NCBI GenBank assembly: GCA_963745035.1
Contig: CAVUVW010000014.1
Span: 832,001-896,000, forward strand
Direction of reading: 5' to 3'
DNA: 64,000 nucleotides
DNA from: an uncultured delta proteobacterium
GTDB lineage: Bacteria > Desulfobacterota > Binatia > UBA9968
Under the pieces are notes generated by a model. The model worked only from the letters and a program-made list of their open reading frames with translations, had not been told where the DNA came from and made no database searches. The translations under genes and the position numbers were made by a program. Below, piece after piece: positions 21,520-29,875 of this stretch; within the stretch, counting starts at the first letter, position 1; every line of letters starts with the position of its first letter.

Positions 21520-22263
21520 ATGGCAAGCAGCGGCGAGAAAGTGTTGTCAGGAAAATGTGCGCTGGTAACCGGCGCGAGCCGGGGCATCGGCCGGGCGATC
21601 GCCGAAGCCTATGCTCGAGCCGGCGCGAGAGTATTTATCTGCGGTAGGAACGAAAGCGGCTTGACGCAAGCGCTTGATGAGATGCGGCAAGTCGGCGCGG
21701 ACGTCGCCGGCCTGGCCGGAGATGTCGGCAATCCAACGGATGCGGATCGGATAGCGCGGGCGGCGATACATCATTGCGGAGCGATCCACGTGCTGGTCAA
21801 TAATGCCAGCATCCTCGGACCGCGCGAGACGATCGCGAGCTATCCACCTGCGGCTTGGGACGAGGTGCTCCGCGTCAATCTCACGGGCATTTTTCTCATC
21901 ACGCGGGCGATTTTGCCGACCATGCTGACGCAGCGAAACGGCTCGATCATCAACGTGACTTCCGGCGTGGGACGGCGCGGCAAGGCGCATTGGGGCGCCT
22001 ACGCCGTGTCCAAGGCGGGCCTGGAAGCGTTCACCCAAGTTCTTGCGGATGAAGTGAGCGAAGCAGCGATCAGGGTGAATGCCGTAAACCCTGCGGCCAC
22101 TCGAACCGAGATGCGCGCGCAGGCCTACCCCCTCGAAGATCCGCGCACGTTGCCGACGCCCGAACAAATCATGCCGGTTTTTCTCTATTTGGCTTCCGAT
22201 GCCAGCGCTTCGGTCAGCGGTCAATCGCTCGAAGCGCGCGATTGGCTCAAGCCCGCAGATTGA
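21520..22263 (+). CDS. SDR family oxidoreductase (YciK-like)
   Basis: TGASRGIG, NNAS, WGAYAVSK, NPAATRTEMRAQAYP. Confidence 0.9.
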   Translation: MASSGEKVLSGKCALVTGASRGIGRAIAEAYARAGARVFICGRNESGLTQALDEMRQVGADVAGLAGDVGNPTDADRIARAAIHHCGAIHVLVNNASILGPRETIASYPPAAWDEVLRVNLTGIFLITRAILPTMLTQRNGSIINVTSGVGRRGKAHWGAYAVSKAGLEAFTQVLADEVSEAAIRVNAVNPAATRTEMRAQAYPLEDPRTLPTPEQIMPVFLYLASDASASVSGQSLEARDWLKPAD

Positions 22264-22330
22264 CGGGCCCGGCGCGTTCAGCTACAAACGCTCTCATATC
22301 GCGGATTCGACTCTCTCGGGACGCATCACT

Positions 22331-23313
22331 ATGAAAATCCGGCTCGTGTTGTTGTCACTACTGCTGCTCGCCTCACCGATAGGCGCGCAGGAGCTCAAGA
22401 AAATCAAAATCGGCTACCCGGCGATTTCGTACAATCAAATTCACATATGGGTCGCCAAGGATGCGGGACTGTTTCGCAAGCATGGGCTGGATGCCGAAAT
22501 CGTTTTCTTTCGCGGCGGTCAAATGGCGACCCAGGCGCTGGTGGCCGGTGACCCGCCGATCGTCAACATCGGCACGGTCGTGCAAGCGGGGCTGCAAGGC
22601 CATGACGTGGTGCTCATCGGTTCTTCGGAGAACGCCTATAACTACTCCGTGGTGGCGCGCCAGGGGACGACTCAAATCGAGCAACTCAAGGGCAAACGGT
22701 TGGGAGTCAGCGGCTTCGGCTCGGCGTCGCACAACGCGTCGCTCATTCTCCTGAAAAAATTCAATCTCGAGCCGAACAAAGATGTTGCTTTAGTGGTCGC
22801 AGGCCCGACGAGCGATCGCCTGAGCGCGGTCGACGCGGGACGCATCGATGCGACGTTGTTAACGCCGTCCGAGCTGCCGCGCTCGCGCAAGCAGGGGCTC
22901 GTCGAAGTGTACGACCTGGCCGATCTCGGGATTGAAGTGCAGGGGAACGGCTTTGCGACCTCGCGCTCATTTATCAAGAGCCAGCGCGATACCGTCCTCG
23001 GCGCGCTCAAGGGATACGTCGAAGCAATTCATTACATTCATCGCAATCGCGACGAGGCGCGCAAGATCGTCGCCAAGTATCTGCGTTTGACGGATGCAGA
23101 AGTGCTCGACGCCACTTACACGGCGTTTGTGAAGACGGTTTCGAAGAGACCGACGCCGACTCTCAAAGGCATCCAGTTCATGCTCGATGAAGTCGCCGGC
23201 AAGATGCCCAATGCGAAAACGTGCCAAACCTGAGCAGTTCGTCGATTTGTCGCTATTGCAGCAGTTGGACAAGGAAGGATTTTTTCGCCGAAATGGCGAA
23301 GCGATACCCTTAA
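22331..23313 (+). CDS. ABC-type substrate-binding protein (NMT1/SsuA-like), two frameshifts near the 3' end
   Basis: Signal peptide, WVAKDAGLFRKHGLDAE, LKGKRLGVS; C-terminal AKPEQFVDLSLLQQLDKEGF..EMAKRYP* restored by shifts near 23215 and 23283. Confidence 0.8.
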
Positions 23314-23357
23314 GTACTTCCAAGCGAGCTACAATTCAGACACAGCGAGGTGCGAAC

Positions 23358-23862
23358 ATGAATCTGCAAATCGGCCAGCGTTTTCCCGATTTCGAGCTGC
23401 CGGATCATGACGGGCAACCCGTCAAAGCTCTCCGACGCGGTCGGAAAGTTTCCTTTTATCTTGTCGTTTTATCGCGGCTATTGGTGAGGCAAATGCCAGG
23501 TGCAGTTGCGCCACTATGTAGAACTTCAGCAAGAGCTGGCAATCAACTACTGTAAGCTCGCGGTCGTGAGCGTGGATAGCGTTGCGGTCAACGATGCGTT
23601 TCGGACCGGCCTCGGCGCCGCGTTTCCCTTCCTTAGCGACGAGGAACGGAAAGTCATCAAAATGTTGAACATGACGGAGACGTCGAAAAGCCGCGGCGTA
23701 ACCGCCATGCCCTACACATTCTCGCTCCTGCCGGACTTGACGATTCACAATCTGTACTGCGGCTACTGGTATCTCGGCCGGCCCACTTTGGATGAGCTGC
23801 GCATGGATTTGCGCGCCATGCTGAAGAAAGTGCGTCCCGATTTTGCAGGTCCGGTCGGTTAA
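23358..23862 (+). CDS. AhpC/TSA-family peroxiredoxin-like protein, probable selenoprotein (UxxC); +1 frameshift near 23424
   Basis: MNLQIGQRFPDFELPDHDGQPVK / LSDAVGKFPFILSFYRGYW-TGA(23485-87)-GKCQVQLR...VSVD...FPFLSDEERKVI; TGA is in frame at the Cys position of FYRGxWCPxC. Confidence 0.8.
23499..23512 (+). promoter_or_regulatory. Candidate bacterial SECIS hairpin
   Basis: GGTGC-AGTT-GCGCC stem-loop begins 11 nt after the TGA, with GT in the loop; outer TGCCAG/CTGGCA pairing also possible. Confidence 0.5.
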
Positions 23863-23969
23863 CACATTCTCGTGCGACCTGTGCCGGAGGCAAGATGCTA
23901 TTCGTGGGCACGCGCCGGCATCATCTGCACAGAGTTGCAAGCTCAGCGCTTAATCGGTAAGCTTTTTCT

Positions 23970-24224
23970 ATGATCTCCCCTGAAGAAATAAAGGAAACTC
24001 TGAGTAAGGCGATCCCTGTGAACCTGGTCGAAACGCAGGATTTGACCGGCGGCGGCGATCACTGGCAGCTTATTGTCGTTTCGCCTGCGTTCGAGGGCAA
24101 AGGACTCATCGAACAGCATCGTTTAATCAACGAAGCTCTGAAAGAGCCGTTAGGCGATCAACGGATTCACGCATTATCGCTAAAGACATATAGTCCGGCA
24201 CAGTGGGACAAACTGGGCTCTTAA
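23970..24224 (+). CDS. bolA: BolA family protein
   Basis: GGGDHW..IVVSPAFEGK..IEQHR...IHALSLKT. Confidence 0.92.
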   Translation: MISPEEIKETLSKAIPVNLVETQDLTGGGDHWQLIVVSPAFEGKGLIEQHRLINEALKEPLGDQRIHALSLKTYSPAQWDKLGS

Positions 24225-24248
24225 CAATTACCGGAAAAGGAGAAGTTT

Positions 24249-24572
24249 ATGGCCGAGGATGTCAAAGGTCGAATCGACGAAGGAGTTAAGAACAACAAGG
24301 TCATGGTTTACATGAAAGGCACGCCGGATTTTCCACAGTGCGGCTTTTCCGCGCACACCGTGGAAATTCTAAAATCCTACGGGGTTCCATTTGCCAGCGA
24401 GGATGTTTTGGCCGACCCTGCGATAAGGGAAGGGATCAAACGGTACTCGAATTGGCCCACGATTCCCCAGGTTTACATCGATGGTAAGTTCGTCGGCGGT
24501 TGCGATATTGTGCACGAGATGCACGAACGCGGCGAACTCGAGCCCTTGTTGAAATCTGCATTCAGCAAGTAA
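24249..24572 (+). CDS. grxD: Monothiol glutaredoxin Grx4
   Basis: YMKGTPDFPQCGFS, WPTIPQVYIDGKFVGGCDI. Confidence 0.95.
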   Translation: MAEDVKGRIDEGVKNNKVMVYMKGTPDFPQCGFSAHTVEILKSYGVPFASEDVLADPAIREGIKRYSNWPTIPQVYIDGKFVGGCDIVHEMHERGELEPLLKSAFSK

Positions 24573-24629
24573 GCAAGCAATATTCAGCGCGCCCGCTCGT
24601 CTAAGCTGCATCTGGAGAGGGCGAACGAT

Positions 24630-25028
24630 ATGAAAAACCACGCAATTGTATTCTTTATCCTCGCGACGATCTTTGTCAGCTCATGCGCTACGTTGGGCCG
24701 ATTCAACCCGGGATATGCCAGCTTCGATCAGGGTTTGGTATTGTTTAATCAGGGCCACTTCGCCGAGGCGGTTCCTCATTTCGAGCGCGCAACGCGAGAA
24801 AATCCCGAGTTCGGCGAAGCGTACTTTTATCTCGGACGTTCCTATGTGAGCCAGAGCAAATGGCGCGCTGCGATTCCGCCGCTGCGCACGGCGTTCAGGC
24901 TTTCGCCGCGCGAAGCGCAGCAGGAAATCATCAACCTGATCATGGACGCGACGTTTGCGGCGGCGCTCAACGATTTCAATTTGGGCGGCGCGCGTGGGCA
25001 ACCCGAGCAGTTCAAGGAAATTCTTTAA
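24630..25028 (+). CDS. TPR-repeat lipoprotein
   Basis: FVSSC lipobox; TPR pattern AEAVPHFERA...EAYFYLGRSY. Confidence 0.8.
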   Translation: MKNHAIVFFILATIFVSSCATLGRFNPGYASFDQGLVLFNQGHFAEAVPHFERATRENPEFGEAYFYLGRSYVSQSKWRAAIPPLRTAFRLSPREAQQEIINLIMDATFAAALNDFNLGGARGQPEQFKEIL

Positions 25029-25128: not shown

Positions 25129-25851
25129 ATGTTTAGGCCAATCCTGGTGGCCGCGCTGCTGGCGGCGACCGCCGCGCCGGCTTCGGCGCAGCTCGATAAG
25201 GTCTTGAAAGGCATCGGCGGATTGTCGGGCGGCGGCAGCGGGTTGAGCGATGCGAAGATCGGCTCCGGTTTGCAGGAAGCGTTGAAGTTTGGAACGGAGA
25301 ATGCGGTCGTTCAAACCGGCGCGCCGGACGGCTTTCTCATGAACAAAGCCATCAAAATTTTGATGCCGAGGCAGCTGCAATCGATCGAGCAGCCGCTTCG
25401 GTTGGTCGGCTATGGCCCGCAGATCGACGAGTTCGTCGTCAGCATGAACCGTGCTGCCGAAAAGGCCGTGCCATTCGCCAAGGAAATCTTCTGGGACGCC
25501 ATCGGCCAGATGACCTTCGATGACGCACACAAAATTCTCAACGGCAGCGACACTGCGGCGACGGACTATTTCAAGGCGAAAACTTCAAAGAAGCTGCATA
25601 CTGCGTTCCGGCCGCCGGTCGAAGGGGTCATGGCCGATGTCGGCGTTACGCGCCAGTACAACGATCTGATCGGCAAATATAAGAGCGTGCCCTTCGCTCA
25701 AAGTATTTCCTTCGACATCAATCAGTATGTAACTGAAAAAACGACGGATGGAATCTTCTTCGTCGTCGGCCAGGAGGAAAAGAAAATCCGCACCAACCCC
25801 GCCGCGCGCGCCACGGATCTCTTGAAAGAAGTGTTCGGTAGCAGGAGATAG
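25129..25851 (+). CDS. DUF4197 family secreted protein
   Basis: [46 protein letters not shown]. Confidence 0.9.
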
Positions 25852-28392: not shown

Positions 28393-28517
28393 TCCGTAAG
28401 ACAGAGACTTGGAAAATGGGAACTGAACCATACCTAAATCGCTGATTCGTTGTCAATTTTCGCCTCTCTATGTTACAGAAATTTATTCTAGAGGGGCGAG
28501 TTGGAAGGGAGTTTTGG

Positions 28518-29756
28518 ATGGAAGAAGAAGTTTTGCAACAGGTGGACCGCGATCGGATCGTGGAGGTGGCTTGCAATCTGGCCAATATCGTCAGCATCAC
28601 GGGCGAGGAAGAGGAAGTAGCAAAATATCTCGGCAGCGAATTCGAGAAGCTCGGCATGCAGGTCGATTATCAATACGTCGAGGACGGCAGGCCGAACGTC
28701 GTCGGCACGCTCAAGGGGACGGGCGGCGGCGCGACGTTGATGTTCAACGCGCACATGGACCACTTCGACAATCCCCAGGAGACGGTTGTCGATGAAGACC
28801 GCATCTACGGCCGCGGCTTGGTAAACATGAAGGCGGCATTTCCCTGCTACATCGAGGCGGTGTCTGCGCTTCAAAAGGCCGGCGGCAAATTGAAAGGCGA
28901 TTTGATCATCTCGGGCGTCGTCGGCGAAATCGAGAAAGCGCAGATCGGCCGGTTTCACGGCAAGACTTATCGCGGCGCGGGCGTCGGCGCGCGCTATCTG
29001 ATGGACCACGGCGTGATGGCCGACATGTGCATCATCGGCGAGCCGACCGGGTTGCAGTTGCAGATCGGCAACGCCGGCCTGCTCTGGGCGCGGGTCAGCG
29101 TGGACGGCAAAGCGACTAAGTTTGTTTTGGCCGCCTGCAAGGTGGCGCAGGCGATTCAGGACTGGGAAAAGGAATATCAGCGCAAGAACCCGCACAAGTT
29201 CATGCTGCCGACGGTGCAGATCGGCGCCATCGACGGTGGCAACGCTTTCAAGCCCGGCACCCGGCCAACGACGGATATCTTCGTCATCGTCAAGATGCTC
29301 CCCGACGCAGTGCCTTTGGCGATCAAGCGCGACATCGAACAGGTCTGCGAGAAGATAAAAAAACGCGAGAGCGATATTCTCGACATCCGCGTCGATCTTT
29401 ACCTGACGACGCCGGGCTATGAAATTTCCAAGAGTGAGCCTTTGGTGAAATCGATGGAGCGGGCGCACAAGACGGTATTCAACGCTCCCGTGCCTTACGC
29501 CAAGCCGATCCGCTACGGCATCACCAGCGATGGCTCGCGCATCGCTCAGTACGGCGTGCCTGCGATCACGTACGGTCCAGGATTCGGCACGCACCTGGTC
29601 GATCCCACGGAAACCAAGGCGGGCGCAGAATGGGACTCGCCCACCGGCGTGCGCCGCGGCGTCGGCATTACGAACATGGTGAACTGCACCAAGGTGTATG
29701 CGATGGCGGCGCTCGATATCTGCAATAGAAAAAGAGAAGAGGTGGCGAAGGCTTAA
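28518..29756 (+). CDS. M20/ArgE-DapE family metallo-hydrolase with atypical metal ligands
   Basis: RPNVVG, MFNAHMD, IYGRGLVNMK, IIGEPT, GVPAITYGPG. Confidence 0.8.
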   Translation: MEEEVLQQVDRDRIVEVACNLANIVSITGEEEEVAKYLGSEFEKLGMQVDYQYVEDGRPNVVGTLKGTGGGATLMFNAHMDHFDNPQETVVDEDRIYGRGLVNMKAAFPCYIEAVSALQKAGGKLKGDLIISGVVGEIEKAQIGRFHGKTYRGAGVGARYLMDHGVMADMCIIGEPTGLQLQIGNAGLLWARVSVDGKATKFVLAACKVAQAIQDWEKEYQRKNPHKFMLPTVQIGAIDGGNAFKPGTRPTTDIFVIVKMLPDAVPLAIKRDIEQVCEKIKKRESDILDIRVDLYLTTPGYEISKSEPLVKSMERAHKTVFNAPVPYAKPIRYGITSDGSRIAQYGVPAITYGPGFGTHLVDPTETKAGAEWDSPTGVRRGVGITNMVNCTKVYAMAALDICNRKREEVAKA

Positions 29757-29875
29757 GACTGGGTCAACCGTTCAAAAGTTTTAACGTCTCGGCAGTCACA
29801 TGAATTCTGAACTTGAACGAAAAATGCACTTTGCCCAAGAGGCACTTTGCGCCGAATTCTACTTTGGAAAGTGAA

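Follow-up and report, generated by a model that had tools for sequence, protein, structure and literature searches.

Selenoproteins with an AhpC/TSA-type domain have been tabulated before. Table 2 of PMC2398784 has an entry for UxxC selenoproteins named "Prx-like 1" (pfam00578), and a table in PMC13188914 has a "Prx-like thiol:disulfide oxidoreductase" (PF00578) with the motifs UxxC/UxxU. A gene at 23358–23862 on the + strand of the window (the whole 64,000-nucleotide stretch of DNA that was analyzed) fits this published class by domain and motif as tabulated, so its kind is already known. Judged by the tabulated entries of both papers, it resembles "Prx-like 1" in its PF00578 domain, in having Sec first in a UxxC motif, in a SECIS-like element just downstream, and in having Cys homologs. 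It differs from the tabulated UxxC class in its nearest Cys relatives, which carry C-P-[KR]-[DE] and not CxxC. A literature search on Binatota and selenocysteine found nothing related. None of the NCBIfam models passed its threshold, the best being the SelL-related NF040769 (34.7 bits versus a cut-off of 120).

The best structural neighbors of the predicted protein are BCP/PrxQ peroxiredoxins and ResA. The BCP/PrxQ proteins (PDB 5epf, 3hjp, 2cx3, and 2ywn) match with a best profile E value of 8e-12 and fold TM scores of 0.76–0.85. Profile alignment to 2cx3 and 2ywn pairs Arg39 with Pro, Sec43 with Thr/Ser, Cys46 with the peroxidatic Cys, and Pro118-Tyr119 with the catalytic Arg. The position of the peroxidatic Cys is thus shared, whereas the PxxxTxxC of BCP/PrxQ reads RxxxUxxC in the studied protein. 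ResA/TlpA proteins (PDB 1st9 and 1jfu) have the same fold (TM 0.70–0.86) and, where helix 1 starts, a redox pair spaced by two residues whose first member is the attacking residue. They function in cytochrome maturation, are anchored in the membrane or exported, and have CxxC, unlike the studied protein, which has Sec and in whose sequence no signal peptide or anchor was found.

Among Cys-containing proteins, the "peroxiredoxin"-labeled RG..C-P-K-[D/E] group (P0122–P0264) is 35–56% identical over the full length, has Cys at the Sec position, and shares the blocks FPD.ELPD, FLSD, and GRPT.EELR.DLR. Unlike the studied protein, these relatives have Asp or Glu in place of Cys46 (89 of 98 representatives), and many have C-terminal extensions. 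Neither the 120 best of the 979 database hits nor the 150 cluster representatives included a Cys ortholog with more than 56% identity. Some Cys-type relatives (P0122 and P0296–P0303; C-P-R-D, 283 aa) have a JGI-labeled cold-shock CspA domain fused C-terminally.

Gene structure

The gene has 167 codons that lie in two frames in the assembly. Direct reading places a Shine-Dalgarno-like GAGGTG (23347–23352, + strand) 5 nt before an ATG at 23358–23360, and a purine-rich GAGG/GGAG stretch occupies the Shine-Dalgarno place in all 15 aligned sequences. The ATG starts an AhpC/TSA-type N-terminus (MNLQIGQRFPDFELPDHDGQPVKAL...) that soon runs into junk in frame A. Codons 1–22 are in frame A (MNLQIGQRFPDFELPDHDGQPV, 23358–23423), and the N-terminus that they encode is alignable in 29/29 relatives. 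The frameshift site is AAAG at 23424–23427, a Lys23 codon plus one extra base where relatives have AAA or AAG. Codons 24–167 follow in frame B (+1; 23428–23859) and end at a TAA at 23860–23862, with 78–89% identity to same-genus orthologs.

The original prediction joined the two frames by removing one A and placed a TGA at 23485–23487 in frame with the listed open reading frame 23500–23862. The extra base is indeed present, in GTC-AAAG-CTC, and reading the sequence bears out the position of the TGA: the +1 frame runs ...KLSDAVGKFPFILSFYRGYW-TGA-GKCQVQLRHY... to the TAA, in the frame of the listed open reading frame. Pfam AhpC-TSA (PF00578) matched frame A at profile positions 1–20 (16 bits) and the +1 frame at positions 15–120 (57.8 bits, above the gathering cut-off of 26), and because both frames match the same family, they represent one gene spread over two frames. 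An intact ortholog scores 76.2 bits over profile positions 1–121.

A start at the in-frame ATG at 23407 was considered and rejected, as it has no ribosome-binding site and would lose the conserved N-terminus. A scan of 23100–24700 for consensus promoters and terminators gave nothing useful; the sole terminator-like site lies inside coding sequence, and such sites were fewer than in shuffled sequences. Contigs assembled from RNA runs (X15) span 23350–23501 and three further stretches of this gene, which is no proof of transcription.

Conservation of the in-frame TGA

Orthologs (E ≤ 1e-10) were found in 38 of 41 related genomes, and each of the 38 has exactly one in-frame TGA. They occur in 22 of 24 genomes of the genus and in 4/5 and 11/11 genomes of two other families of the order; the three genomes with no match are 80, 86, and 95% complete. 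The codon for residue 43 is common to all orthologs read, and in the 30 loci that were read through, the TGA always directly follows Trp (W-U-[G/A/P]-K-C; W-U-G-K-C in the window). A scan of public loci with one genome per species returned 325 stretches that encode a relative, and of the best 80 of these, all 80 keep the TGA at that codon. The 30-locus and 80-locus sets partly overlap (they share contigs of G015, G019, and G004, for example), and the counts include one unpublished locus (L018, genome G005), on which no claim depends.

Motif variants in the 80 public loci were WUGKC (39), WUPKC (30), and WUAKC (11). The U-G-K-C spacer, which had been called unusual for lacking Pro, is therefore ordinary within the family, where the residue after Sec can be G, P, or A. 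Titles of the relatives' records name Candidatus Binatia, Deltaproteobacteria, or Syntrophobacter(aceae) bacteria. Distribution is patchy, as even sampling across the phylum gave matches in 3 of 301 genomes, each with the TGA; the family is concentrated in the order of the window and among records whose titles name Methylomirabilota/Rokubacteria.

More distant homologs were sampled as 150 representatives of 50%-identity clusters. The motif is covered in 98 of them, and 89 of the 98 have Cys at the Sec position, as the original prediction anticipated. Sequence 3' of the TGA is conserved in relatives, and contigs from four public runs, which derive from near strains, have TGA and no other letters at 23485–23487. 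These comparisons, together with the selenocysteine genes described below, support the core of the original prediction: an AhpC/TSA-like UxxC redoxin with Sec, split or overlooked by annotation. On these comparative grounds, the internal TGA is a selenocysteine codon, and we infer that Sec is inserted there. An alternative genetic code was also considered and ruled out, since ordinary TGA stops are used and Sec genes are present.

A SECIS-like hairpin

In Escherichia coli fdhF, the minimal SECIS hairpin starts 11 nt after the UGA and has a short G+C stem and a G-U in its loop. The window has a stem-loop shortly 3' of its UGA, as a bacterial SECIS would be placed: the hairpin GGUGC-AGUU-GCGCC at 23499–23512 (+ strand), which resembles fdhF in its 11-nt spacing, its short G+C stem, and its G-U loop. 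It differs in that the genus of the window has a 4-nt loop with no bulged U; Methylomirabilota-type members differ from fdhF in a loop of 6–7 nt, with the 3' arm moved accordingly. The consensus fold of 30 sequences has a 5-bp stem, and 79 of 81 distinct sequences fold the hairpin with 5–8 bp and a loop that begins AG[G/U]U at nt 20.

Constraint on the RNA is visible in codon usage. In 30 orthologs, codon entropy at residues 47–51 (Q-V-Q-L-R) is 0, 0, 0, 0.21, and 0.22, while all other degenerate conserved columns have at least 0.35 and most 0.8–2, so near-zero synonymous variation is limited to these five residues. Compensating changes were observed at pair 22-33 (GC in 65 sequences, AU in 2) and pair 19-36 (CG in 14, GC in 13), and loci L115 and L116 have G-C to A-U changes. 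The covariation score was 0.103, versus 0.047 in shuffles, and none of 500 shuffles reached it. Controls slid by +2 and +3 scored as high (0.121 and 0.125), which weakens the covariation statistic; we attribute these scores to alternative registers of the longer-loop Methylomirabilota-type sequences. Within the genus, the hairpin is invariant and there is no covariation. As a single sequence, the window's own 61 nt do not have an exceptional fold (z = -0.62; 50 of 200 shuffles as good), and a scan of 23300–23900 against Rfam at E values up to 10 gave no match.

Selenocysteine machinery and other candidate selenoprotein genes

The genome (7.4 Mb in 28 contigs, 92.6% complete) was searched for the machinery that the original prediction calls for, and all of it was found: selA (523 bits), selB (347 bits, in two frames in the assembly), selD (385 bits), and tRNA-SeC(tca). 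The three protein-coding genes are adjacent, and the tRNA-Sec gene is ~52 kb away on the same contig (C17). The selB gene (C17:316668–318705; loci L003 and L009) switches frame at ~C17:318071 through one extra base, at GAGCTTGCG (GAG-CTTG), where four of four relatives have GAG-TTGCG or GAG-CTGCG. If this switch were real, the UGA could not be decoded in the strain of the window.

Two other genes of this genome have in-frame TGA codons. The selD gene (C17:318846) has one at ...VKAAG-U-AAKLGP..., where SelD proteins usually have Sec or Cys. A second Prx-like selenoprotein candidate, 32% identical to the studied gene, lies on the minus strand at C13:192919–193332 (L016); its N-terminus resembles a signal peptide, its motif is FYRGYW-TGA-PAC, and a hairpin follows the TGA by ~17 nt. 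The studied hairpin shares no common motif with selD and this paralog, where the hairpins differ in position and loop.

The one-base frameshift

From Met1 to the stop, the gene keeps a single frame in all 29 relatives, which have AAA or AAG at Lys23. A DNA alignment was made with 14 same-genus loci, hand-picked from those of the 29 relatives with 380 nt or more of upstream sequence; in two of these loci, another gene lies upstream. Within the gene, only at position 23424 does the window have a base that all other aligned sequences lack. Over the whole alignment, the window has three extra bases of its own (~23222, ~23279, and 23424) and no unique gaps. Contigs from DNA runs (X1 and X2) lack one base at 23220, 23286, 23423, and six intergenic places, and the RNA-run contig X15 lacks one at 23424. 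The base-lacking contigs come from near strains ~93–95% identical over the stretch and not from the source sample; no sequencing run searched held more than 0.56 of the sampled words.

The same type of lesion occurs elsewhere in the assembly. The upstream gene, which encodes an NMT1/THI5-like substrate-binding protein (22199–23313, + strand; Pfam NMT1, 65.7 bits), ends early at 23233 in the assembly, while relatives continue to ...EQFVDLSLLQQLEKEGFFAEMAKRYP and a stop (...FFAEMAKRYP). Its C-terminal end has two lone extra bases (~23222 and ~23279–23286), and its tail passes through two other frames. Comparison with three same-genus genomes revealed further lone insertions inside conserved coding sequence at ~27259 and ~30525 and also within 28500–29800. 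When the window was compared with three relatives by tblastn to count frame switches, alternative-frame open reading frames of conserved DNA aligned as well, which made the count too noisy, and single-site DNA alignments were used instead. In the same region, G019 and G004, two further assemblies of the genus that comprise few contigs, have unique lone insertions of their own. No frameshift was found in rpoB, rpoC, or dnaE, so the assembly is not error-ridden throughout.

All of the lesions are insertions, with no deletions. The base added at Lys23 (AAA|G) matches a synonymous variant that relatives carry, as does the one in selB (C|TTG), and the insertions at 23222, 23279, and 30525 adjoin a codon third position. 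This pattern is what would be expected of a consensus built over co-occurring strains. The frameshift noted in the original prediction is thus present in the assembly and peculiar to it; judged from these alignments, it is probably a consensus error and not part of the biology.

Alternative readings of the locus

Gene callers have treated the TGA as an ordinary stop: of 979 public protein records, the 120 best are all ~120-residue open reading frames, each the piece that follows the TGA and 69–72% of the protein. If they were right, the real product would be 120 residues from the GTG at 23500, or there would be two separate peptides. We consider this very unlikely. Upstream of the TGA, all relatives keep the frame, and the 42 codons there change freely at synonymous sites while the encoded protein is conserved; homologs extend over the full length and have Cys where the TGA stands. 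The 120-residue product would have neither the first strands nor any of the redox motif, and the GTG from which it is called sits within the stem of the conserved hairpin.

A selenocysteine codon could also belong to a gene that no longer works in this strain. The family would then be genuine and the strain's copy a pseudogene made by a real 1-nt insertion, with selB broken and the Sec trait in decay. That two Sec-related genes are frame-switched while rpoB, rpoC, and dnaE are intact speaks for decay. However, lone insertions of the same type occur in genes unrelated to Sec (twice in the upstream binding-protein gene and at ~27259 and ~30525); only insertions are found, several of them duplicating a synonymous alternative base; and the G019 and G004 assemblies have their own. 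Beyond the extra base, no additional stop or indel interrupts the gene, and selA, tRNA-Sec, and selD, TGA included, are intact. The lone insertions in the upstream gene, selB, and two further genes make a consensus error likelier than a pseudogene, which we regard as unlikely. Programmed +1 ribosomal frameshifting past the extra base has in its favor only that the site lies in an A-rich run (AAAG); it is contradicted by the absence of the shift in all 29 relatives, since a programmed site would be conserved, and we judge it extremely improbable.

The preferred reading, to which we assign a probability of about 0.8, is that the product is a 167-residue cytoplasmic redoxin of the Prx fold with Sec43 in a U-x-K-C center, and that the frameshift is most likely an artifact, in which case the organism makes the protein at full length.

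Predicted structure and mechanism

The AF2 model of the protein (pLDDT 83, pTM 0.83) has a thioredoxin/Prx fold with Sec just before helix 44–59. The canonical peroxiredoxin signature (PxxxTxxC plus a conserved Arg) was not found. Because the Pro, Thr, and Arg of peroxiredoxins are replaced, canonical peroxidase chemistry is not expected and the protein is not a canonical peroxiredoxin. The original prediction had offered thiol peroxidase as a function, and this could not be established: the Pro and Thr of PxxxTxxC are Arg and Sec here, and the Prx Arg aligns with Pro-Tyr. The protein is instead predicted to be a selenol/thiol oxidoreductase that cycles through an Se-S bond.

A possible sequence of events follows from this prediction. 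SelB with Sec-tRNA(Sec) would bind the hairpin at 23499–23512 and deliver Sec in place of termination, as in the established bacterial mechanism. If the extra base is a consensus error, the organism would make the full-length protein as its relatives do. Sec43 would then stand at the N-terminal end of helix 44–59, where thioredoxin-like CxxC proteins have their attacking Cys, with Cys46 one turn later at the position aligned with the Prx peroxidatic Cys. Sec43 would attack an oxidized substrate, either a disulfide or a peroxide. An Se-S bond with Cys46 would form next, to be re-reduced by a thioredoxin- or glutaredoxin-type partner.

Neighboring genes

Downstream of the selenoprotein gene on the same strand are bolA (23970–24224; Pfam BolA, 62.1 bits) and, after it, a glutaredoxin gene (24249–24572; Pfam Glutaredoxin, 79.4 bits). 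This arrangement, with both genes behind the selenoprotein gene and in its orientation, recurs in 59 of 80 public loci (the best 80 of 325) and in none of 13 Methylomirabilota-type loci. The linkage may reflect function or only shared ancestry. A gene for a small TPR protein (24630–25028) comes after the bolA-glutaredoxin pair and keeps its place in 41 of the 80 public loci, and it is followed by a DUF4197 gene (25129–25851).

Significance

The importance of this locus lies mainly in annotation. Public ~120-residue records of the branch are often labeled "peroxiredoxin," and because these records are post-TGA fragments and there is no NCBIfam model, the branch is missed in counts of the selenoproteomes of soil bacteria. 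The frameshift adds a caution of another kind, as lone insertions in few-contig metagenome assemblies can mimic pseudogenes. Tentatively, and with more doubt than confidence, the proteins may form a distinct and unnamed AhpC/TSA branch that exists only in the Sec form, in which U-x-K-C arose inside a family with monothiol C-P-K-[D/E] Cys members; the place of the gene directly before bolA and the glutaredoxin gene, conserved in the order of the window, would suggest that it serves as a selenium-dependent redox partner of the BolA/glutaredoxin system. The U-x-K-C proteins and their C-P-K-[D/E] Cys relatives are a natural pair for testing what Sec and a resolving Cys add.
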